NCBI GenBank assembly: GCA_964106645.2
Contig: OZ067039.1
Origin: Podarcis pityusensis
Lineage: Eukaryota
Reading direction: 5' to 3' (one strand)
Length of the DNA stretch: 64,000 nt
Of the stretch, positions 24,101-63,352 are shown piece after piece. A model generated the notes under the pieces. It was not told the DNA's origin and did not search any database. It was given only the letters and a program-made list of their open reading frames with translations. The translations under genes and the position numbers were made by a program. Every line of letters starts with the position of its first letter. The first letter of the stretch is position 1.

Positions 24101-27100
24101 TAAGATGCAATCACTCAAGCTTTTGGTGTCACTTGACCTAGCCAGGGCCGGACAACTCATCTACCCTGAGTTGGAGCAATAAAAGTGCAGTTATGGGTCC
24201 CAGCAGTATTAAGCAAAACATGGTCCACACTGGCATCTATCACATCAAGAGAAATACATTTAAACAGGAGAAGAATGAAGGCTGAGAAAAGCCACACAGA
24301 GATGGGAGGTGAAACCGGTAACCTCACTTCAGGCAGCAGCCAACCATAATACAAGGTCTTTCCCTACAAGCAGGTTCAGGCAACTGAATGGCAGACCAAG
24401 CACACACACCGGCTGTAGGCAAAGCTCTTGGAGACAGGTGTGTGAGATCCTATCAGGCTTAGCCTAAAATTTAATTTATATAATTTCTTTACCACCCTTC
24501 ATTAAAAGAAATCCTAGGGTGATTTACATATCAGAACAATTAAGATCACAAATCACATAATAAACATTAATTAAAATAAAACAGTAAAAAAATTGTTCCG
24601 TATAGCTGCTCATAGAACTGCAGAGTTGGAAGGGACCACAAGGGTCATCCAGTTCAACCCCCTGCAATGCAGGAATCTTTTGCCCAACGTAGGGCTCAAA
24701 CTCATGACCCTGAGATTAAGAGTCTCGTGCTCTACCGACTGAGCTATCCATTCAGCTTATAAAAACAGTCCAATCCATTAAAATCCTACCCTCTCAGCCC
24801 TCCTGTGGCTTCCAAGTAAGCTAACAGACAAGGGAATCCCCCTGGACATGCCTGTAGAAAGTTCTTAAAAATGAAAATGACAGCATTTAATTCATTTATT
24901 TTTAATGCACCCTTCCATCCCAAATGGAGTCTTCAGGTGTAAATAAAAAATATAAAATACATTTTCAAAAAACAGCCGTAACAACCAAAAAGGAATCGCA
25001 AAAATAGAAGCACAACGCTCAATCAGCAACTAAATCAAATTAAAGGACATTTCAATAAAATAAATGTCCAAACAATATGCTCTTAAATCAACACCTAAAT
25101 GCATAAAGAAGGGTCTAGTTGGTTTTCCTGCAACAAAAAATTATGGGCACCAACACTGAGGTGGCCCTAGCCCCCCCCCCCCCGGTTCATTTCAGATGGA
25201 ACAAATCTCCTCTAATGATTGCAGCAAGTAGGCAGCTCACTGTGGCTCTTCAGGTATTAACAAATGTTAAATGTAGTTGACTGCTAGTTTAGTGTAACTT
25301 GAGTGCACTTGGCCCTGTCAACACAAAGACGTGTCCCTTTTCTCCTTAACTTCCAATCTTTGTTCTGAGGCAGACTTTATTGGATTTCATTGGGGTGGGG
25401 AAGACTTCTGATACTCACCTGCTTGGTTTAGGAATTTCTGCTGCACCTGAGCACATCGCAGTTCTTCATTGGCTTCCCGTAAGGCATCCCGCTCTTCAAT
25501 CAGCCTCTAAGGGAAAATGGTCAGGAATCACTCCAGGAAAAGGACCACTTAAGCTATGGTGGGCTGATGCCTTATTGTACTACATTGTCAAAGTAACAGA
25601 AACTAGATGCTACTCCTGCCAGATTTCCCTATTCTTGCCACAAGACTAGGAGTAGAGAATCTCAGGCCAAATGCAGCCTTCAAGGCTCTCTGACATTTGG
25701 GACTCGCCCCACATGCTCTCCAGGCCTGCTCTGTGCCCTCCTTTACCAGGCTGGAATGAGCCATTGAACTGCGATAATGGATGGGTAGATAGGTGGTGCA
25801 TTTGTGCGCATATATAAAAAATTTGTATGGACATACCTATATCTATCCACACCCACCCACCACCAAGCTCGAGCTTTTGCGTGGCCAGAATGTAGCCCTT
25901 TCAATGAAGAGAGAAGTCACATCCATTGCTCCACCCACACTTGCATGCAACCTCCACAAGGCTGCCCATGAGAGGATGTGGCCCTCAAGCTGAAAAAGCT
26001 CCCTCACTCCTGGACTAGGCCTTCACCTGCAAGCCAAAGGAAACACTCATCATCCTCTTGTGGTACAAGGTCTGCATTACCTCTTTTTCTTTTACCAGGG
26101 CCTCAAACTTCTCCTTGAGGTTCTTGAACTCAAACTGCCATTTCTCCGCCTTCAAAGCCTCATCTGCATGTTTGCTGTGGAGCTCTTGCACCTGGAAGAG
26201 GGAAGAGTAGGGGTTTGCTGTGCTTATGATCTTTGCCCTCCTCTCCGGCTGCAAAGCAATCAGCAACGCTGCTTTTCATTACAGGTTGTCTTGAATCTAT
26301 GTTTAGTATTGAAGTCCTCCCAAACACCAAGAGTACAAGACTGTTTGAGACAACAGTTCTGCCTGCAAAGCCACAGCACAGCTACAGCTACCAGGTCAAT
26401 CCTGGTCAAATGGGTTTTGCCTTTCTGGCTCCAATGGTGCTCCAATCTGTCTTTAGGATTCCTTCAGGACAGAGTATTATTGCAAGTGCATTCTGAAGGC
26501 TGAGGTCTGCTCAAATGCATTCTCTTATTAACACCAACTCACCTGTCTCTTATGTGCCTCCAGCTGCACACGGACAGCATTTGCACGCCGAAGCTCCTCC
26601 TCCAGCTCACAAGTGCGCTGCATGTAGACGGTGTTTCTTTCCTCAAGCAGCCGAACTTGCCGCCGAAGGTCACCCAGGTCTTCCAGCTTCTTCTTGTAGG
26701 AGTCCACCATAGCCTCCAGCCGTCCCACCTTGTCTGAGGAGTGACTGCAGAACAGCAGGATATAGATATAAGTATAGGTATCTTTTACAGCTTTTAATGT
26801 CAGGTAACTCTGACTTTATTGGATAAAAAGTGGAGGGACAGAAAGTAACTCTACTAGCTATAGAAAACTACTGTGTAAGCAGGAATTGCTGCAGCAAGGT
26901 CAAAGGGTGCCAAAAACTGAAACAATAATGGATAAGCAACAAGTATCCCATGCATTTTAAGGCCAACATTCCAAGTTGGATTGTTGCAAACAAATTATAG
27001 TCAAATGGTAACTGTCCTTTGTTGGTTTGGACACAACAAACAAATAGTAAAGCATTTGATTCCCCACTTCTGCTTCTAGCCACTGGGATGTGGTAGAAAA

Positions 27101-33100: not shown

Positions 33101-36100
33101 CATGCTCAGTCGTCTTCAGAACTACTCTGATGGGAGAGAAGAGTCCAGGGTTGATGCAGGACAGGTATCTAATTGGGGTGAAGAGCCCTTCCTACCAAAT
33201 CCCACCCTCATCTTCAAATCACAAAGCTGGCTGATCAACCTAAGCCAGCCAAGAAACCCTGAAAATTGAACAACTCTGCCTTCAAGGTATTGCTAAGTCA
33301 GAGTCTCATGACTTCTGGAGTTCATTTTGATACGGACCGGGAAGGGGGGGGGGGTACCTCTCCCGCTCCCTTTCCTTTGAACAACAGAGGCGATGACCTC
33401 GAGGGTACCCACAGTACACCCACCCTTGGTCCCCTCACCGTTGCACAAGCACCACACTTCTCCCGTAAACCCCTTTTCTTCTTCCTTTCACGAGCGAAAT
33501 AAGCTCACTTGTAAATATATTCCCCTATCCCTATACCTGCTTGCGCTCTATACTTAGAATGAATAGACCGGGTGTCCCTGCATCCCCGTCTATTCCTATG
33601 CCTGCGTTTTGGCCAATCACAGCCATGAATTCATCCTGCAGAGGCGAGCTCAGGGAGCTCTTGCACGCCTCATTTAACCTCCTGACGAGCTGCTGACAGC
33701 CCCCTGCTGCGAGAACAATGGAACCGAAACTCTTGACCTCGTAAAACTGTCAAAACCCTGTTACAATGTATCCATTTTTACTAGAATGGATACATTCTAT
33801 TTCCGCTTTTGATTTACGCTACGGGACAGGCTGGAAGCCATCGGAACCTTTCGAAAATCATATAAAATCAACCACAACTCCGATTTTCTTGTTCTTGGTG
33901 TCATTCGGCTCAGTTTCCCCTGGACTCCATGATGCTACCCAGACTCCATAATCCCCGAGACGACAAGTCACGTACACAGGAACTCCTTAATCCGGTCAGA
34001 TCGTTCTGCCCAGCCCTTCCTCCGGGCAGTGCCAGGTGGCAGACGATGCATATCACCAACCTATTGTCCTACCGCCACCGGTGCTCAGGAAATGTATATT
34101 TGTGTACCTCCCTCGCTCTGCATATTCCCCCTCCCTTATCTCAAATGTTAATTAGTGTAACCCCATCTCTCTCTGAGATATTCATGACGTGTGTAATGTA
34201 TTCATGATGTAACTGTGATGTATTTTGCACTGTATTCTGGGACTTGGAGGGAACTTTTAAAAGTTTATGTCGCCCCATTCTCGGGGTTCAATTTCATCTT
34301 GAACCTGTTGCGCAATAAACTTGGATCTTTGCATCTTGCTCCTGCGTCCGGCTGAGCTTCCTTTTCCTCCGCAAGGACCCGCGGACTCTGTCCGACGAGC
34401 TGGGTGGCAGGGTAAATACGCACCCAGATTTACCGTAACAGTTGGCGCCCAACGTGGGGCTCGAGCGGTTCTCCCGGGCTGCTGACCGGGGGTCCCGAAC
34501 TCTTCAGCCGGCTCCGGGCCACTTTGCCTGGGAAGACCCTTTTGGACCTCCGGCCATCTCCCGGGCGGTAATCGGGAGTCCCAGAAGTTCAGTCGGGGAG
34601 CAAAGGGGATCCAGCCGGCTTATTCAACGATCCCGGGATCGGATCAACGTAGAAGACGCGTGAGTATAGGAAATCCAGTGCACTGGTGGGAGAGGGGTGG
34701 AAATCTCCTGGCAACTGAATCTCTGCCCTCCTTCTATCGCTCTTTCTTACCTTTCTCTTGGTCCGGTTAGTGAGAGAGACCGTGGACCACCGCTCAGCCC
34801 GAAAGGGGGGCTCTGAGCTCTATCCCTTTCTCTAAACTCTCCAGCCAGCCGCACCAATTGGGAGTCCGAAGGTAAGACGGAGAGAGCCGACTTGAAAGAC
34901 AGCCGACTCTCCGCAACGGACATCCTAGTTGAAAGCAAGGGGTTGGAGTTCTTTTCCGAACTTCTTTAGCGCCCGGCAAGGGGGCGGGAAGCGGTCTTGC
35001 TTTCTATCACCAATCCCAGCCGCACCGGTCGAGCCACGTAACACGTGTATCGTGCGTGAGTTCGCTTCCGAAAGCAAGGGGGATTTTCGACCCGGAAAAC
35101 TCTATCCAGGGACAACCCGATCTGGCACCGCACGGAGCGGGCGTCCAGTAGGGCCCCTTTTCCTGAGATTGTACGATAGGTAGGAGGTTGCCAGGAGGGG
35201 AGCCCAGGAGGGATTGGGCGGGAAAACGGCAGAGTGGGAAGGAAACCCCAGGTAAATTGATAAAGTGAAGAAACAGGATAAGGAAGGTAGGTAGAATAGA
35301 GCTCTCTAAAGTAAACCCCGTTAGGAAGTTGCCAAGCAACAGAAATAACAGACCCAGATAAACCCCAGCACCCATAACGACCCTCCCTCTCTCCCCTTCT
35401 CTTTACCCAGACACGCGTGAAACTAAATGGGTACCCAAGCTTCCAAGCACGAGCGGGCTCGCTCCGGGAAGAAGGCTTCCAGAAAGCCATCTGAATCCCA
35501 GAGAGACCCCGACTCCCCCCTTGAATTCGTCATCTCATATTGGAAGTCTATCCCCGGGCACAAATTACTATCTAGACAGAAACTAGAGGACCTCTGTAGA
35601 GAAATCTGGCCTGAAGGCACGGCCTCCGCAAAACCTGAACTACGTTGGCCACCGGGAGGCTCTTTTAACGAGGACCGCCTGCAACACCTAAGAAAGTACC
35701 TGATGGAGGAGAAACCTCGTCAGTTAGAATATCTAGCCGCCTTTGAGACGGTCAGGAAAATGCTTCAGGCTCCAAAAGGAGCGACGACTTACCAACTCCC
35801 CATTCTAAACCAAGGGAGACAACCCCTGCCCCCCCCGTATGAAGGACACTCAGCAGACGATTCAACGGAGCGAGCGCTCATTCCCTTCTACTATAGGGAG
35901 ATTCCACCGTCCGCCTCGAGCGGGGAGTCCGAGAGCGAGGAAGAGAAAGGGGCACGGGGGGGCACAAGCCAAAGAATTACCCGACAACAGGCTAGAGTAA
36001 AGAAGAACACCCCCCAGGAAAACTCCAGCCCCCTAGAGAAACCCAGAGAAGCCCCAGGGACATCCAAACCATCGGACCCTGCAGTTGTCCAGATGCCCTT

Positions 36101-39100
36101 AAGGGCCCTACCAATCCCTCCCCTAGAACCGGATGGACCCCCTCGAATGGTATACACCCACCAGCCGTTCTATACCGCAGACTTGGTAACCTGGTCTAAT
36201 CAAATGCCATCCCTAAGAGACGACCCGGATAAATGCCACCGCCAGGTCAGCGCTATTTTTTCAACACATAACCCAACTTGGCCAGATGTTCACGTCCTTC
36301 TAAACGCCCTTTTCAACGATGCGGAAAAGACGGATATTTTAACTAAAGCTGGAGAAGCAATCGAGCTCCCGAACTACCAGGCGGGGCGCCCAGAAAGGCT
36401 GGAAGCACTCACAGCCCAATGCCTGCGTATCGAACCGTCTTGGGACTATAATACCACCAACGGAATCTGGTGTTTAAACATGTTTAAAAAGGCAATTTTA
36501 GACGGCATTAAAGCTGCGGGACAGCGTACCGTCAATTGGACGAAGGTCCAAACTGTGTTACAAGGGGCAAATGAGCACCCATCCGATTATTACACCAGGC
36601 TAGTATCGGCCATCAAGACCTGGGGTGGAATCGATCCAGAAAACCCCCAGCATGAGGTCATAGTGAAAGGCTTCTTTAAGGATCAAGCCTGCCCTGATAT
36701 TAGGAAAGCCCTGAACTTACAGATAGGATACGATGGAAAAAGTATTAGTGAAATCCTCTCCATTGCTAAGTCGGTCTATAATTCTCGAGACGAACGAAAA
36801 AAGAAAGACCCCAAGCCCGAAGTCGATCAGATCTTGGCTCTCAGCATGGAACCAAACTTCCACAGGGGAAGAGGTTTTAGCAGAGGAAAGGGGGCCCGGG
36901 GAGGAGGACCCCTAAATCCCCACAGGCCATGGGGACCTGCCGCCGGCGGTTGCTACTACTGCCAGGAAGAGGGCCACATAAAAAGATTTTGCCCTTACCT
37001 CAACAATAATATGTCTTATGGCATGCACTCCAACACGACCCACGGATACGGAAACCAACCACCCCCCACCAATACCCCTCGAACAACCTCTGCCCCTTAC
37101 AACCCACAAGTACCTGCAAACGCCTCTGGTCAAACCCACGGGCCCATGCCAGGGCCAAGAACCCAAATGCCTACAATGAATCCACCGACCCACCCTTGGA
37201 CAAATGCCACGGCACCACCCCTTCACCCCCCTAACCAGCCACCACCTGACGACCAAGAGGCATACTGACAATTAGAGGGGGATCCCGACCAACCTCAGAC
37301 TATCTGCCCAGTTCTAACGTTATCTGCTGAAGACCCATTTTGCACCATAGACATAGACGGCCATCCATACCAATGTCTACTGGACACTGGGGCCACATAC
37401 TCAACTCTGACCGATAGCCACCTGGAACCGGGCTCAGAAACCAGAAAAGTTATGGGTCTCGATGGGATTCCCCGCACGTGCCCACTTTCACGCCCAACTA
37501 AAGTTACGCTTGGACCCTTACTAGCCGAACACACCTTCCTCTTAACCACCAGCCCCGTAAACCTTCTCGGAAGAGACCTTCTATGCAAATTAAACGCAAC
37601 AATCAAATGCTCCAAGGAGGGTATCTATTTATATATGCCGGAGGATTCCATCCCCGCATTTCAGGGAATAATAGAGGAAGCGAAGACAGGCAGACAATTC
37701 CCGGAACTCCCACCTGAACTTGAGACTGATTTACCCCCCTCCCTATGGGGCACCGAGTCGACTTCCGTTGGCCTCTTACTATCAGCAGTCCCAGTAAAAA
37801 TCACTTATAGGGCCGATTTACCCTTTCCATGTACAAAACAATATCCTTTACCCAAGGAAGCCATCGAAGGATTAACCCCTATGATAGAGGACTTCCTCGA
37901 AAAGGGGATCCTGATCCCTTGCGCATCCCCATGCAACACTCCAGTACTTCCCGTAAAAAAACCATCTGCAGAAGGAGCCCCAGTCCGATACCGCTTTGTC
38001 CAAGATCTAAGGCTGGTGAATCAGTTTGTAATACCCCGCCACCCAGTGGTGGGCAATCCAAACTCCCTCCTGAATGCCATACCGGCTGACACTAAATGGT
38101 ACACTGCCGCGGATCTATGCTCCGCCTTCTTTAGTATACCCTTGGACCCAGCCAGCCAATTCCTCTTCGCCTTCACCTGGGGACCCAGTCAATTAACCTG
38201 GACAAGGTTGCCCCAGGGATACGTAGAATCGCCCGCAATTTTTTCGGCCATATTACACCAAGATTTACAAGACATCCACCTTCCGGCTGGCTCCGCCCTC
38301 CTTCTCTACGTAGACGATCTTCTTCTCTGCTCCACCAGTGAGGAAGCATGTAAAAAGGACACTAAATACCTCCTTGCTGAACTAGCGCGAAAGGGACACA
38401 AGGTGTCACCAAAAAAACTCCAATACTGCAAACAGGAAGTAAAGTACCTCGGACACATCCTAGGGATAGGTACCCGAAGTTTGGCCACAGATAGGATAGA
38501 AGCAGTCACAAGGATCCCCCTCCCTAAAACTAAACGACAACTGCGGGGATTCCTAGGAATGGCTGGCTTCTGCAGAGCCTGGATCGCGGGTTATAGTGAA
38601 ATAACCAAACCCCTGACGGCCATGACCCGCCAAGACCACCCAGACACCTTGGTCTGGGAGGAAGAAGCTTACAAAGCCTTTGAACGTGTAAAACGGGAAT
38701 TGCGGTCCGCTCCCGCCCTAGGCTTGCCGGACTACAGGATCCCTTTCAACCTGTTCATCCATGAACAAATGGGGGTAGCTTCAGGAGTCCTGACCCAACC
38801 TTTCCGTGACACTGAGCGGCCAGTAGCCTATTATAGCCTCCAACTAGATAACACCGCAAAGGGGGCAGTAGGCTGTCTGAGAGCCATTGCGGCCGCCGCG
38901 ATCCTTCTTGAGAAAGCCCAAGAGACGGTCCTAGGACATGAAATCACTATTCATGTCCCCCACTCCGTCTCCACTCTTCTGACCTTAAAAGGCTGCCATC
39001 ACTTCTCAAACTCCCGCCTCAACAGATACGAAGCTCTCCTACTGACCCCGTCAAATGTCACCATTAAACGAGTAAACTCCCTCAACCCAGCAACCCTACT

Positions 39101-42100
39101 CCCCCTCCCTGAAGACGGCACCCCACATCACGATTGCGCTACGATAGTCCGCCAGGCAGAGAAGCCCCGAGAGGACCTAGACCACCTCCCCCTAGAAAAC
39201 CCCGACATCATACTCTACACGGACGGTAGCTCGAAGGTTATTGATGGAGAAAGGAAAACTGGATATGCAGTAGCCTCCGATTTCGAAGTCTTAGAATCAA
39301 ACCCAATAAATCCCCAATATAGTGCCCAGGCCGCGGAACTAATTGCCCTCATACGCGCCTGTGAAATTAGTGAAGGTAAGAGAGCAACCATTTACACGGA
39401 TAGCAAATACTGTTTCGGACTCGTACATACAACTGGTCAAATTTGGCTCCAAAGGGGCTTCTTGACTGCTGCCGGCTCACAAATTTCTCACGCCGCACTG
39501 GTCGAGAGACTACTGACAGCAATCCATTTACCCACCGCAATAGCAGTAGTCCACTGTAAAGCGCACACAAAAGGAAGAGACCCCGTCTCTAAAGGAAATA
39601 GACGAGCCGACAAGGCGGCCCAGACCGCTGCCCTCCGCCCCCCGCAAGACGAGTCAGAATTCCAAGCCCTACAACTCCCCCTCAACATAGACCCCTCACA
39701 AATGTACCACATGGCCTCAGACGAGGAGAAAACTATGTGGGAGTCCCTAGGCGCAGTTAACCAAGCCGGAGTCTGGACCCTCCCCGATGGCAGAACCGTC
39801 CTTCCAAAATCCTGGACTCCAAAATTGGTGAGGGTCCTCCACCAACAGACTCACTGGGGAAAAGACAGATTAATTGAACACGTTAAAAGATCCTGGTTTG
39901 CTCCCGGGCTAGCTGCGGCAGCCACTGCAGCCTCCAAGAATTGTGTTACCTGCAATGCCTTCAACCCAAAGCGAGAACCCAAACGACCTCCAGGAGCCAG
40001 ACCATGGGCCTTTGTCCCCTTTGAGAGCTTACAATTGGATTTCATAGATTTACCACAGTGCCAGGGCTACAGACATGCTTTGATCATAATAGACCAATTC
40101 TCCTCATGGGTGGAAGGGTTCCCTTGCCGAAAGGCCACAGCCTCAGTAGTTGCCAGGGCACTCCTCCAGGACATTATACCCCGGTACGGGGTACCCCGGC
40201 GCTTGGACAGTGACAGGGGAACCCACTTCACCGCTGAAATAGTACAACTAATTGCCAGAGCCCTCCAGATAAAATGGGACTTACATACCCCTTACCACCC
40301 GCAATCCTCTGGCCAAGTAGAACGAATGAATCAGGAGATAAAAATACAACTGGGAAAGCTCTGCAGAGTTACAGGACTGAAGTGGGTGAATGCACTCCCA
40401 CTAGTTCTACACAACGTCCGGAGTGCCCCAACTGGACCACTAAAACTATCACCGTTCGAACTCCTGTTTGGGAGGCCCCCTCCCGTATATAATACTCTAT
40501 ATCCCCTCTCAGAACTTGAGGTGGGGGAAACAGAACTCACTAACTATGTTATTCAGCTCCAGACACAGCTGAAGCGCCTCCACCACTACGCTGCCGTCGA
40601 GGGACAGAACCTCCCCATCGACGTCCAAGCCCACTCCTTTCATCCAGCGGACTGGGTCCTGGTCAAGGTATATCCGAAACTACCTCTACAACCAGCCTGG
40701 GAAGGCCCCTATCAAGTACTCCTGACTTCACCAACTGCCGTAAAGGTGGGAGAAAAGGCCGCATGGATACATCACACGAGGTGTAAGTCGTCACCACCTC
40801 CCCAAGACACCCACGACAACCTCGGCGAGGATTACACCTTCGAACCTCCACCTTGCCCACCGACCTCCTACATCGACGACGTCGAGGAGGAAACTACAGC
40901 AGATCGGGGCCGAGATCGGGCTCAACAGACCGGACCAGCAGATCGGGGCCGAGATCGGGCTCAACAGACCGGACCAGCAGATCGGGGCCAAGATCGGGCT
41001 CAACAGACCGGACCGGCGGATCGGGGCCAAAGTCGGGCTCAACAGACCGGACCGGCGGATCGGGGCCAAAGTCGGGCTCAACAGACCGGACTAGACGCCT
41101 CGACATCCAACTGGACGTCTGAAATCATCCCAGATACCAACAACATCAAGCTGCGTTTCAAACGCTCTGACAGCTCCATTTGACAGCTCCATTGACAGCT
41201 TCTCGCTCTGACAGCTCCATCTGACAGCTCCATTTGACAGCTCCATTGACAGCTTCTCGCTCTGACAGCTCCATCTGACAGCTCCATTTGACAGCTCCAT
41301 TGACAGCTTCTCGCTCTGACAGCTCCATCTGACAGCTCCATTTGACAGCTCCATTGACAGCTTCTCGCTCTGACAGCTCCATCTGACAGCTCCATTTGAC
41401 AGCTCCATTGACAGCTTCTCGCTTTGACAGTTCATCTGACAGCTCCATCTGACAGCTCCATCGACAGCTTCCCCTGACAATAATTCCGCACCACCTGACA
41501 CAATTTGTACTCTCCCCGCGCGCCTCCAAGCTATGGCCTTTGCCCACATCGCCTTTCTTCTCGCCGCCCTACCCTGGATCCCGTCCACCTCATCGGACCA
41601 CTGCACAGGACTGCATACGGACTATCACTTCCTGGACTACCATGAGGTCGAGACGGGCAAGTCTAACCCCGATCGAATGGGGGACTTCGACTTCTGCCTT
41701 CCTGAGTCCCGGACCTTACTACGCCATTCCCTAGTACCCCAACTCGCCGACAACGAATATTGGGAACTTTTCATCCGAAACAAGGATTTACGCCGTATCG
41801 GCTCGGCGGCTCTCACTCTGGACCACTCCTCTTATCGACTGATCTGCAGAAATGGGACTTATCTTCTTTACGAGAAGGGAGAAGTCTTACGAACCCCAAA
41901 CTGGACCGAAGTTGAGTTAGGAGGGACCACTCATGCTTATACGGACTCGAACCACCCCTCTGGAAACTTGATTTTCGGGTTCCAGTGCCTCCGCTCCACC
42001 CCAAAAACCCCGAAACCCCAACTCCAAGGACTCTGCCTTCGACGGTTCTGCTGCTTATGGGACTTAGGGGTCGCTCATGAGTGGAAAGGGGCTGAATATC

Positions 42101-45100
42101 TCGAGGGGTGGCACCATCCTATACACCCCTCGCGCTCCCCCTCATGGGACCACGTCGGACCCCTGAGATGCGGCGGTATCGCCAGGGATAGGCGACTGCT
42201 GAACACCACCGACCCCCTCCACCCGGTCGGTACGGCACCCCGACACTTCGGCACCGACTCTGCACTCCCGGGAGAAGACCTCCTGTCATCCTGGGAACAA
42301 AACTCCTACATTAAACTTCTCAGCCAGGTGGCCAAGGAGGCACCCTACCCAGACTGCTGGATTTGCGCTCACGCGCCCAGCCATCTCCAACAAAGTCTTC
42401 CACTAGTTCCAGTTCCGGTCACCCTAGAACAGTTCCGTTCCGGAAACGTTACTTCCTGGAACTTAACCGCGCTCAACTTGACACACCAATACCTCTATCT
42501 CACTGGCCCTACGAAGGGACCCCTTTGCCGCAGTTTCTCAGGGGAAGGAACCTTCATCGGATCCAGTACATGTACCAACACTCTTGAAATCCTACCAACT
42601 GGGCTGGTCACTATCTCCAACACAAGAGATTCCCAGACTTTTCCTAACCTTACCACTGCCTGGGCCACTGCCATCGGACACCCCTTGGACTGGAAACCAC
42701 AACCCACAGACACCATGCTGCTGCAAACCTTTGCTTCAGGCAGAATGGAGTCTTACCTCAGCGGCCTATTCTGGGTGTGTGGACACCGCGCTTATACGTG
42801 GGTGAGCCCACACATGTCTGGATCCTGCTTCATTGGCTACATTGTCCCCGGGATTAGAATAATCCCACACCTACCCCCTGGCAGACAACGGAACAAAAGG
42901 GAGCAAAAGGGACTGTCAGACCTGTCAGACGTCGCCGCGAATGGAGAGACCGTGGGCCGAGCACTCTTCCCTGCCTACGGTGCTGGTTCAAACCATGTAG
43001 ATATTCTCCGACTCACCGACATCCTCCTGAAATTTATGCAGGAAGCGACACAGATCACAGATTCCCTCATGTCTGAACTATCCGAGGTAAGACAGTTGAG
43101 CTTACAGACGAGGATTGCGACCGACTTCCTCTTGTCCAGTCAAGGAGGAACCTGTGCCTTAATAGGTACAGAGTGCTGTACATATGTGACTGACCAGACT
43201 TTAAATATAACCGGACATTTAAATAACATTCACGAGTTAGCAGGGAGGCTACACAATATCCAACATGAGGGGCTATCCGATCTGGACTTGTGGGGATGGT
43301 TACCCAAGCTAGGATGGCTCCGACAGTTACTGAAAGTCGTGCTGCTCCTCATCTTGACCGCTATTTTTTGTGTCTCTATCTTATGTTGTACTGTGCACTG
43401 CATTAACCCTTGCTGTTCCCTCCTCCGCCACTCTACTTCCTCTAACTCATTCTCTCTTCGAGCCTATTCCCGTTCCCAACACACCCCTACCTTCCCAGAC
43501 TACGTACAGATGAGGCATCTGGGGGAAGGGGAATACGAGATCACTGAAATCTAACGCTTCTGTGGTGCGGAGAAAGGATTTGCAAGTTCCTTCAGAACTT
43601 TAATGCAAATCTATCTCCGAATGGGGGACTGATACGGACCGGGAAGGGGGGGGGGGTACCTCTCCCGCTCCCTTTCCTTTGAACAACAGAGGCGATGACC
43701 TCGAGGGTACCCACAGTACACCCACCCTTGGTCCCCTCACCGTTGCACAAGCACCACACTTCTCCCGTAAACCCCTTTTCTTCTTCCTTTCACGAGCGAA
43801 ATAAGCTCACTTGTAAATATATTCCCCTATCCCTATACCTGCTTGCGCTCTATACTTAGAATGAATAGACCGGGTGTCCCTGCATCCCCGTCTATTCCTA
43901 TGCCTGCGTTTTGGCCAATCACAGCCATGAATTCATCCTGCAGAGGCGAGCTCAGGGAGCTCTTGCACGCCTCATTTAACCTCCTGACGAGCTGCTGACA
44001 GCCCCCTGCTGCGAGAACAATGGAACCGAAACTCTTGACCTCGTAAAACTGTCAAAACCCTGTTACAATGTATCCATTTTTACTAGAATGGATACATTCT
44101 ATTTCCGCTTTTGATTTACGCTACGGGACAGGCTGGAAGCCATCGGAACCTTTCGAAAATCATATAAAATCAACCACAACTCCGATTTTCTTGTTCTTGG
44201 TGTCATTCGGCTCAGTTTCCCCTGGACTCCATGATGCTACCCAGACTCCATAATCCCCGAGACGACAAGTCACGTACACAGGAACTCCTTAATCCGGTCA
44301 GATCGTTCTGCCCAGCCCTTCCTCCGGGCAGTGCCAGGTGGCAGACGATGCATATCACCAACCTATTGTCCTACCGCCACCGGTGCTCAGGAAATGTATA
44401 TTTGTGTACCTCCCTCGCTCTGCATATTCCCCCTCCCTTATCTCAAATGTTAATTAGTGTAACCCCATCTCTCTCTGAGATATTCATGACGTGTGTAATG
44501 TATTCATGATGTAACTGTGATGTATTTTGCACTGTATTCTGGGACTTGGAGGGAACTTTTAAAAGTTTATGTCGCCCCATTCTCGGGGTTCAATTTCATC
44601 TTGAACCTGTTGCGCAATAAACTTGGATCTTTGCATCTTGCTCCTGCGTCCGGCTGAGCTTCCTTTTCCTCCGCAAGGACCCGCGGACTCTGTCCGACGA
44701 GCTGGGTGGCAGGGTAAATACGCACCCAGATTTACCGTAACAATTTCTTGGCAGTATTTGGTATTGCTAAGCATCTAGGTCTCAGAGACTACCACTCACC
44801 CTATTCTCACTTCATACCTTCAGCCTCCAGTTGTCACCGGCATCATCTTTAATCCTCAGGAGCCAGGTTTCATTGAACCAAGATGGGTCTCTGGAAATGA
44901 AAACCATAAAGCTGTTGCCTTTGGTTTGGGGGTGGAAAGCAAACTCTGAGCAACTTTGTGATCTTGCACATAAGCTTTGCGAAACAGATTCTATATTGGC
45001 TTTTCACCAGCCTAGAGTCAAGCTCTTCTGTCTTCTGTCTCACACACAGCTTCATTCACATTGTCCCAATGTGACAAAGAAGGCAACCACAGGAGCTTTC

Positions 45101-57752: not shown

Positions 57753-57978
57753 CAGTGGTACCTCGGGTTACATACGCTTCAGGTTACACACTCCGCTAAC
57801 CCAGAAATAGTGCTTCAAGTTAAGAACTTTGCTTCAGGATAAGAACAGAAATCAGGCTCCAGCGGCGCAGCGGCAGCAGGAGGCCCCATTAGCTAAAGTT
57901 GTGCTTCAGGTTAAGAACAGTTTCAGGTTAAGAACGGACCTCCAGAATGAATTAAGTACTTAACCCGAGGTACCACTG
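57753..57978. mobile_element. Tc1/mariner MITE, same family as 2023-2280
   Basis: Same TIRs, TA TSD and a largely alignable interior. Confidence 0.85.
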
Positions 57979-59499
57979 TATGTTACTGGCACTTCCCAAA
58001 GAGAGAATGCTTCCACATCTCTTTGCTTACTTACTAGGCACATATTTGACATGGATCTAAGATGATTTAGAGGGGAAAGAGGTGTTCTATCCAGTTTTCA
58101 AGCCCTCATGTCCCACCTTCTCCCACATCAGCCAGCTCTCCTAGCTGTGGTCTGGAATTGAATCAATATGCACACAGGGCACTTCCAAGTTGTTGCTGTT
58201 TGCAAGTGGGATTTGATCACATTCTGGTAATTATTCAGGTTGAGTAATTATAGTTGATTGAGCAGGGGGGTGTCTTGCCAACTCACCCACTTTCCCAAAA
58301 GATCATATTTTTTTGCGATAAAGAAAGTAATGGGGAAATGCACTTGGAAGTGTAGGATGACACTTGCCTTGATGCAACATCATCTAACCTCCCTATGAAC
58401 AAATCAGAACGAATGCTCCTTAAATCAGGTCTGGGGAACCATTGACCTCCAGATGTTGCTGAACTACAACTCTCATCAGCATTAGCAAGCATAGCCAGTG
58501 ACCCTAATTGATGGGGCTTGTAGTTCTACAACTAAGGGCCTGTTTATGCACAGCTATTGTTCATGTGTTGCACAAGATCCAGGCATAAATGGCATTTCAA
58601 CAAAAGGAAATGCTTCAGACCAGTAGTTTCCTAACAGTTCACACATGCAAGTCAAACCCATCCACACAGAGATTTTCCTCGCTCCCCCAGTATTTTTATT
58701 TTTATTATTTTAATTTAGTGCTGCCATAAGCTATATCTATTATCTCTCAAAGTAGCATTTCTGTTGCAGGAGCATGATTTTCCCAGCAGTCAACCTGCAA
58801 TATTTTGCCACTTGGGAAATATTATTCCAGCCCACCCATTGTGATTGTAAGTGGTGTGTGGGATATCATTAAGTGTGGCAGGCACCAAATGGATCGTGCC
58901 TGAATCTTTACAAAATTGTCTGTTTTTTCCGTTGCTGTACCACTAAAGAATAGAGCACGCATGTGAATCGAGTTTTTCAAATAAAATACTAGCAAGGATT
59001 CCCTGTCATAGCCCTGTCATTTCAAATGTTTTTATTTAGTGCTTGGAAGTCTGTGGACTTTATTTTCAGCCCCAGAGCATGAATCTCCCCTGTTTTTCTT
59101 TAACATCACAAACAGGAATATGACTGCCTTCCCTGCTACAGGTATCCCCTCCTTTCTCTTAGGTAGGAGCAGAATACTGTATTGTGATACTGACGCCTAA
59201 TGCATGCTAGTGCAAATATAACACTAGTGCTAAAATCCTGTGCCCAATTTCCTGAGAGTAAGTCTGCTCAGTGGGAGGAAACTGATTTCTTGGATCCATA
59301 TCTTCCCCAGGTTTGGTACAAAAACTATTTTGGTTGACATGTATCGGGAGAGAGAAGGAGCGTGTCCCTGTCGGTTTTCCTTGATGTCTTAGTAGCTTTC
59401 AGTTTCATTGGCCATATAGTGGCTTTCTGGGGTAACTGTCTGAATTGGGAGTTGATGGGTACTGTGGTGCTTGGGGGATATAGCTCAGTTCTGTGGATG

Positions 59500-62212: not shown

Positions 62213-62350
62213 GTCATACAGTTGTACAGCAGGAAGAGACCGCGAGGGTCATCTAATCCAACTCCCTGCAATGCAGGAATCTTTTGCCCAATGTGGGACT
62301 TGAACTCACAGCCCTGAAATTAAGAGTCTCGTGCTCTACCAGACAAGCTA
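62213..62350 (-). mobile_element. Second, more diverged copy of the tRNA-Lys/CR1-tail SINE
   Basis: Shares cctgcaatgcaggaatcttttgcccaa...attaagagtctcgtgctctacc with 24609-24750. Confidence 0.7.
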
Positions 62351-63352
62351 TTTGTCACATGCATGCAAACTCTGTGTCTTTACATGTACATGGAAGAAAC
62401 ATAATGTGCGAAGCGGCCCAAACGGGGAGAGGCAATTGAGAATGGATGTAGATTTTGTGGCAGGGCAGCGGCAGGGAATGAGAGGCATAACTTTTTGGAT
62501 AGCACGGGGTGGGTGTGGGGAATGGGGAAGCTTCCCACTGAGTCGATCCAACTTCTTGTGCCCTATCCAGCTCCATCTGGCTCGGTCTGCACCTCCCCGC
62601 AGGGCCCCCTCCCCGCCCTTTGCAGCTGTGTCGCCTCCGGCTTGGAGCCATTTGGATTTTGCAAACTAAGCAAGGTCAGGCCAGGAGAAAATGTGGAAGC
62701 GACAGCCCTGGGGAAAAACTAGGGTGCTGCAAGGGCACTCCCTTCAGCGTCAAAGCCTTCATAGCCGTGCTATTCCAGTGCCAGGAAGCACTGTAATTAT
62801 TGGGGTCACGAGGCTATGCCTTTTGTAATAGCTGGCTCAATCAAAGCTTCCCCTTTTGCAAGCAGTGCGCCCCCAGTTGACTTAAGGCGGCAGCAGGGTG
62901 TAGCGCTCTGGCGAGAGGTGCCTGCTCCAGACAGCACTGAAACGCAGGCATTCGCAGCCATTCAGTTTGAGTAATTCCAGCCACCTCCTTCACTTCCTCT
63001 CCTAAATTGCCCAGCAGGATTGTTGTGTGGCAATTAGAGAGCAAGCTGCTCTCCGCCCCAGAGGCAGCTGCATCGCAGAGATCCCTTTATAAACAGCTGC
63101 TCATGCCCTAGAGAGAACTGTAAACTCGGCTCTGGACAAGGAAGGCATCAGTGTTTAACTCAGTAAAGCTCTTTAATGTCTTCTGGCGGAAATGATACTG
63201 GACATTGTTGCCTGGTTCCTGCTTGCACACACAGAACTTCACTCTGTCCTCTCTGGGGCAAGTCAGAATTGTCCTAAATTATTTTCTTTTCATCTCATAC
63301 CTATCCCCAGTCTCTGTTTTCGTCTCTTTGGAGATTATTGCCAACCATCGCC

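Follow-up and report, generated by a model that had tools for sequence, protein, structure and literature searches.

A gag-pol junction with UGA, a tobamovirus-type hexamer and a predicted long-range helix in a class I provirus of the lizard Podarcis pityusensis

How does a provirus express pol when an in-frame stop codon separates it from gag? The question is raised by an element at 33328-44742 of a 64,000-nt stretch of Podarcis pityusensis DNA (contig OZ067039.1, assembly GCA_964106645.2), referred to here as the window. It is a class I provirus of LTR-gag-pro-pol-env-LTR organization, with all features on the plus strand, a 4-nt target duplication (ATTT) and a primer site. The 5' LTR (33328-34440) and the 3' LTR (43630-44742) are identical over 1113 nt. 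The primer-binding site (34443-34460), located 2 nt past the LTR, is presumably of the lysine-tRNA type, which would be unusual in a class I element. The gag gene (35427-37268) codes for 613 aa with a capsid p30 domain, one zinc knuckle and a proline-rich tail of 91 codons. It is followed by pro-pol (37269-41183; 1304 aa), with protease, RT, RNase H and integrase in a single open frame, and by an env frame (41440-43554; 704 aa from stop to stop) that matches TLV_coat. Since the two 1113-nt LTRs are identical and gag, pro-pol and env are all open, with the expected Pfam domains, the provirus is a very recent insertion.

The LTRs are long, and the leader of about 990 nt ahead of gag holds no Met-started ORF above 30 aa. 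Integrase has a 13-aa repeat in its C-terminal tail, encoded by five 39-nt units (40897-41091), and similar repeats occur in lacertid relatives. A 54-nt repeat of 5.7 copies, itself composed of 13-nt units, extends from the end of pol to env (41166-41471), where the env splice acceptor is expected. Two dispersed host repeats are also present in the window, namely 2069-2282 / 57767-57980 (92% alike) and 24610-24747 / 62214-62351 (80%).

The junction itself reads GCA TAC TGA CAA TTA GAG GGG GAT CCC GAC. The two genes share one frame with a single stop between them (TGA, 37266-37268), and decoding of this stop would yield a Gag-X-Pol protein of 1918 residues. Counted from the TGA, the protease motif LLDTGA starts at codon 37 and the first methionine is codon 62. 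An earlier note on this DNA had proposed a leaky stop here; all the numbers it gave (gag ending in TAC-TGA-CAA-TTA, the shared frame, LLDTGA, 61 codons before Met, 1918 aa) hold.

We wondered if the TGA is the natural end of gag or an inactivating lesion. The distance of 37 codons between stop and protease motif is in keeping with epsilon-like viruses, being 38 in walleye dermal sarcoma virus (WDSV, locus L015), 39 in L016, 33 in L039 and 30 in L017, while eight gammaretroviral loci have 25 or 27. Among 14 related Gags with a zinc knuckle, nine (47-81% identical) end at the stop position of the window. As for the other five, one ends just past it in the +1 frame, three end earlier and the gene model of one joins it to RT by splicing. 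Not one of the 14 runs through the stop, with the reservation that a protein end marks a stop and not which codon it is. Nine matches were obtained when proteins with Gag and Pol fused were sought, and in none of them is the stop position occupied by an amino acid, the fused lacertid models skipping the junction; a scan of cluster representatives gave 28 matches, none of which shows the codons directly after the stop. Because the motif distance is as in WDSV and the majority of related Gags end at this position with none running through, the TGA is most likely, judging from sequence comparison, a natural gag-pol readthrough site and not a lesion, as the earlier note had assumed. Readthrough between gag and pol is a textbook process. 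Most ribosomes would halt at the gag UGA and produce Gag, and a few percent would insert an amino acid and go on to Gag-Pro-Pol; we regard this as very probable.

Pol might alternatively be made without readthrough, the TGA being a lesion or being circumvented by splicing, frameshifting or an internal start. Gene models P0002, P0007, P0138 and P0139 do splice over the junction, and in fungal Tca2 a gag-pol junction with an in-frame UGA serves as pol promoter (PMC2194720). The models differ, however, in their splice points and look like the product of automatic stop avoidance. Related Gags share the end position, the LTRs are identical and the three genes open. A start at Met 62 would drop the protease active site. 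Frameshifting is at odds with gag and pol lying in one frame, the sole slippery-like heptamer (37162) being outside the gag frame. We consider production of Pol by any of these routes very improbable. A branch-point-like TACTGAC followed by AG does overlap the stop (37262-37275), and models P0138 and P0139 take a nearby AG as acceptor; real splicing there is unlikely, since the spacing is too short and a pyrimidine tract is missing.

To which retroviruses does the element belong? By Pol protein, its nearest matches are from Podarcis and Zootoca (best 87%). Two RT trees both group the element with lacertid sequences, in a clade separate from the MLV clade that holds L001-L009, so that it does not belong to the gammaretroviruses (MLV group). 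In the FastTree phylogeny (132 rows), the lacertid clade falls in a larger group with the SSSV-like L039 (support 92); in the IQ-TREE phylogeny (39 of these rows), a branch supported at 98 puts it with the amniote and gammaretrovirus sequences and apart from L039. The common frame of gag and pro-pol and the grouping of the RT with gamma- and epsilon-like viruses are those of a class I ERV, and from its sequence the element is placed in class I between gamma and epsilon. Close relatives were sought in viral and metagenome contigs, and none were found. Loci from alignment-based scans (39 and 78) were used as controls; 21 of them were put into the RT tree and none fell in the lizard clade. L015 and L006 have the contexts and lengths given for WDSV and MoMLV in Table 1 of PMC13517186, and L039 carries the SSSV hexamer.

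The codons that follow the stop, CAA-TTA (37269-37274), match exactly the CAR-YYA of the tobamovirus and pomovirus type I signal (UAG-CAR-YYA), and the third codon conforms to the xxG of the tobamovirus motif. The hexamer was thus correctly recognized as tobamovirus-type in the earlier note. The usual natural form of type I has UAG with A before the stop, the conserved tobamovirus motif being xxA-UAG (PMC3159437); here the sequence is C-TGA. Convergence with plant viruses, which the earlier note had also suggested, is by analogy a fair inference for the hexamer and does not extend to this 5' context. With the codon usage of this pol, CAR-YYA at two given codons has a chance of 0.0044, and of the in-frame dicodons, 5 of the 1303 in pol and 3 of the 612 in gag have this form. 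Taken together, the two strands of the window hold 17 instances of a stop followed by CARYYA; the 9-mer therefore counts only by its place at the gag stop.

Further, we examined conservation of this region. Contigs from four sequencing runs, representing four organisms, were aligned to 36850-37750, and about 11 of them (by depth sums) cover the stop. Nine of these differ synonymously at 37265, directly before the stop. No change is seen at 37266-37290 among the variants listed, which come from the best 40 of 258 rows, private changes being possible beyond these. In the same 40 rows, none of the 13 codons of stop, hexamer and helix arms (see below) has a listed variant, against 30 of 162 codons overall (P=0.06). 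The frameshifted Podarcis lilfordi Gag P0132 ends H-T-D-N-stop in the +1 frame, like the window, and its junction must therefore read NGA-YAA-YTR. In P0138 and P0139, members of the P0132 subfamily (P0132 and P0139 Gags are 95.6% identical), 7 of 10 residues after the junction differ from the window. This is suggestive, though only suggestive, of a linker that drifts in the P. lilfordi subfamily while the stop context stays. The hexamer is likely to contribute to readthrough.

A different explanation would have UGA-C together with an extended stem-loop suffice, the rest of the hexamer being incidental or coding for a Gln-Leu needed near a protease cleavage site. It is in line with L039, which has UGA and a predicted helix in the absence of CAR-YYA, and with WDSV, where the readthrough codon lies within the Gag-Pro cleavage site (PMC13517186) and nearby codons may be constrained by the protein. 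Agreement in six of six bases, with the low chance given above, speaks against it, as do the third positions of CAA and YTA, apparently kept while the linker changes, and the variation at 37265 next to a hexamer without listed variants in those 40 rows. We hold it to be quite unlikely and retain the hexamer as a candidate element of the signal.

UGA at a retroviral gag-pol junction is not new. The earlier note had set the UGA of this junction against the UAG of MLV-type viruses; UGA in this place is not special to the lineage: the unclassified class I viruses SSSV, ZFERV and RMEV have UGA as well, in the contexts UGA-AGA, UGA-CGA and UGA-AGU (PMC13517186), and so do L039, L092 and L096. Unlike the junction studied here, the three viruses do not have CAR-YYA. 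In L092 (positions 11-13) and L096 (272-274), class I ERV fragments from metagenome contigs, TGA-AG(A/G)-GGC stands 31 codons before the protease motif.

We then asked if RNA structure accompanies the stop. Moloney murine leukaemia virus (MoMLV, type III) resembles the window in having an in-frame gag-pol stop and structure from +12. Its UAG-G, purine-rich spacer, compact H-type pseudoknot and stop 25 codons before the protease motif are all absent here. A scan for H-type pseudoknots, positive in six of eight gammaretroviral controls, found none in the window, L015, L016, L017 or L039, which bears out the earlier statement that the MLV arrangement of TAG plus pseudoknot is lacking. For WDSV and snakehead retrovirus, PMC3835772 agrees with the absence of a pseudoknot. 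Local folds up to 160 nt past the stop gave nothing beyond shuffles. The same test assigned z values of -0.9 to 1.7 to known gammaretroviral pseudoknots, leaving them unflagged, and since it misses these, its null result is no evidence against structure. A small local stem (GAGG...CCTC), put forward in the earlier note, finds no support, 37266-37340 folding worse than 195 of 200 shuffles; in the prediction its bases are engaged with a segment lying about 190 nt further 3'. Search of Rfam returned two chance-level matches only and no SECIS family, which would indicate a selenocysteine reading of the UGA.

When folding is extended to 37500, an 11-bp helix is predicted between 37277-37287 and 37463-37473. 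It begins at +12 after an 8-nt spacer and encloses a loop of 175 nt (197 nt overall). The 3' arm thus lies outside 37269-37340, the stretch that had been proposed for folding, and the view of a short linear signal holds in part: the hexamer is exact, and the signal is probably not linear alone. Predicted pairing is about 0.98 in four folding contexts (0.96-1.0 for 10 of the 11 pairs, about 0.75 for the last), and the helix is stable in prediction at 20-42 C, also with the ribosome footprint blocked. The prediction hence contains a hallmark of type II signals, an extended stem-loop separated from the stop by about 8 nt. The interior of the stem-loop (37292-37457) consists of irregular, weakly supported inner helices with pair probabilities of 0.4-0.94, in which pairing is lost with four of the eight listed variants that fall on paired bases.

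Is such a helix expected by chance? Its strength is reached at one of 1204 in-frame positions in pol, which is its own, and in none of 300 synonymous shuffles; with the first 30 nt, including the G-rich 5' arm, kept fixed, 14 of 300 shuffles match it. Over gag and pol together, 5 of 1818 positions reach this strength, two of them seeing the junction helix and three one other helix near 35820. The latter, located in gag from near 35817-35823 onward, equals the junction helix in strength. For the G-rich 5' arm, alternative partners with the same duplex energy lie near 38510 and 40460, and the stability of the whole 235-nt region is not unusual (20 of 200 shuffles).

The 3' arm falls within protease flap codons for D-G-I-P-R, a sequence kept in every lacertid protease listed except P0007. 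Protein constraint could account for conservation of these codons. In run X4, position 37475 is the end of two contigs from different subfamilies and 37451 the start of two; these coinciding contig ends would imply that the two subfamilies have about 35 nt in common (about 37446-37480), covering the 3' arm. Two differences in P0138 and P0139, Asp to Asn and Pro to Leu, are at positions where a transition keeps the pair; their support for the helix is weak, since 6 of 11 helix positions tolerate a transition anyway. No compensatory, two-sided change was seen among the listed variants (best 40 of 258 rows).

We wondered if similar helices also occur at other junctions. In six of eight gammaretroviral controls, the long-range scan ranks stem 1 of the pseudoknot, at +12, first or second. 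In L039 (UGA-AGA), it finds a 10-bp helix from +13 to +175 with a probability of 0.99-1.0, reached by 3 of 300 and 18 of 300 shuffles and by 2 of 1000 positions. Its 3' arm is located in the protease flap region too, about five codons off that of the window and unrelated in sequence. A long extended stem-loop is predicted from about +5 to +183 past the gag UGA of L039, and in the available part of PMC13517186 such a stem-loop is not given for SSSV. The scan gave no significant helix in WDSV (L015), L016 and L017 (39, 80 and 30 of 300 shuffles). In L016 and L017, the region from +10 to +159 past the gag UAG folds better than shuffles (z -3.2 and -2.0), and these folds possibly represent other stimulatory structures. 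As modelled, the helix at the lizard junction is somewhat more apt to contribute to readthrough than to be neutral.

The hexamer could nevertheless set the leak alone, as in tobamoviruses, with the helix arising by chance between a G-rich run and a genome rich in C. Besides the exact CAR-YYA with its xxG third codon, this is supported by CAR-YYA being active in mammalian cells without structure (PMC13517186) and also with UGA (PMC3542737), and by the type I motif of TMV needing no structure (PMC13517186). The 14 of 300 shuffles obtained with a fixed 5' arm and the competing partners point in the same direction. Against this stand the position of the helix exactly at +12, its rank as the strongest of all pol positions scanned and its counterpart in L039. 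In addition, the tobamovirus 5' A is missing, and a benyvirus with an identical hexamer still relies on downstream sequence (PMC3159437). A hexamer acting by itself is in our opinion rather unlikely.

We favour a model in which both elements take part. CAA-UUA directly past the stop would weaken termination, and an extended stem-loop, with the basal 11-bp helix at +12, would meet the mRNA entry channel of the ribosome. The level of leak would be set jointly by the hexamer and the stem-loop, whose 3' arm follows after 175 nt, within the protease gene. That UGA, a tobamovirus-type hexamer and an alphavirus-type extended stem-loop act together in this way has, on the basis of the predicted fold, about an even chance of being correct. 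The same arrangement of hexamer and stem-loop was once built artificially in a VEEV reporter: with UGA, CAA-UUA and the stem-loop, readthrough in HEK293 cells was 10.1%, compared with 7.6% for the wild type and 0.8% without the stem-loop (PMC3159437).

Comparison with known systems places the junction between established types. From tobamovirus type I it differs by UGA instead of UAG, by the lack of A before the stop, by a predicted long-range helix that tobamoviruses do not have and by its occurrence in a vertebrate retrovirus. With the type II signals of alphaviruses and tobraviruses and with Drosophila kelch it shares UGA-C, the 8-nt spacer, a basal helix of about 11-14 bp and a large loop. 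Extended stem-loops described for these systems start at +12 (126 nt) in VEEV and at +16 (177 nt) in SINV, and kelch has an 8-nt spacer and a 268-nt loop (PMC3159437 and PMC13517186); structures of VEEV, CTFV and MoMLV all begin at +12 (PMC13517186 Table 1). Unlike in alphaviruses, the next codon is CAA and not CGG or CUA, and the structure is a predicted one. Beet necrotic yellow vein virus (BNYVV, a benyvirus; UAG-CAA-UUA) likewise combines the type I hexamer with downstream structure (PMC3542737, PMC3159437), but it has UAG, a compact hairpin with an 8-nt loop and a plant coat-protein extension as product. As far as prediction goes, the junction signal is a type I/type II hybrid and a full member of neither type. 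Providence virus, whose host is an insect, uses UAG and is no retrovirus. It does carry the type I motif outside plant viruses (UAG-CAA-CUA; PMC3542737 Table 5). Precedents therefore exist both for combining hexamer and structure, in BNYVV, and for type I motifs beyond plant viruses, in Providence virus.

In a literature search, with most subscription journals outside its scope, neither this junction nor a retroviral gag-pol boundary with CAR-YYA turned up, nor a hexamer with a long-range stem in a retrovirus. According to a 2026 review (PMC13517186), animal viruses lack type I signals, and it remains unclear which cis-elements direct readthrough in epsilon-like retroviruses. We tentatively propose, with less than even confidence, that class I retroviruses other than the MLV group use an undescribed stimulator, a long-range helix that starts at +12/+13 and whose other arm, 170-210 nt downstream, lies in the protease flap codons. 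To this, the lacertid lineage would have added the tobamovirus hexamer, becoming a natural type I plus type II hybrid and the first type I vertebrate retrovirus found in our search.

Here a vertebrate retrovirus provides a clear instance of the type I hexamer, together with a specific predicted structure that has a parallel in an SSSV-like virus. Short cassettes and short folding windows miss the 3' arm. If the proposal is true, retroviruses tune the ratio of Gag to Gag-Pol by modular parts common to plant viruses and alphaviruses.
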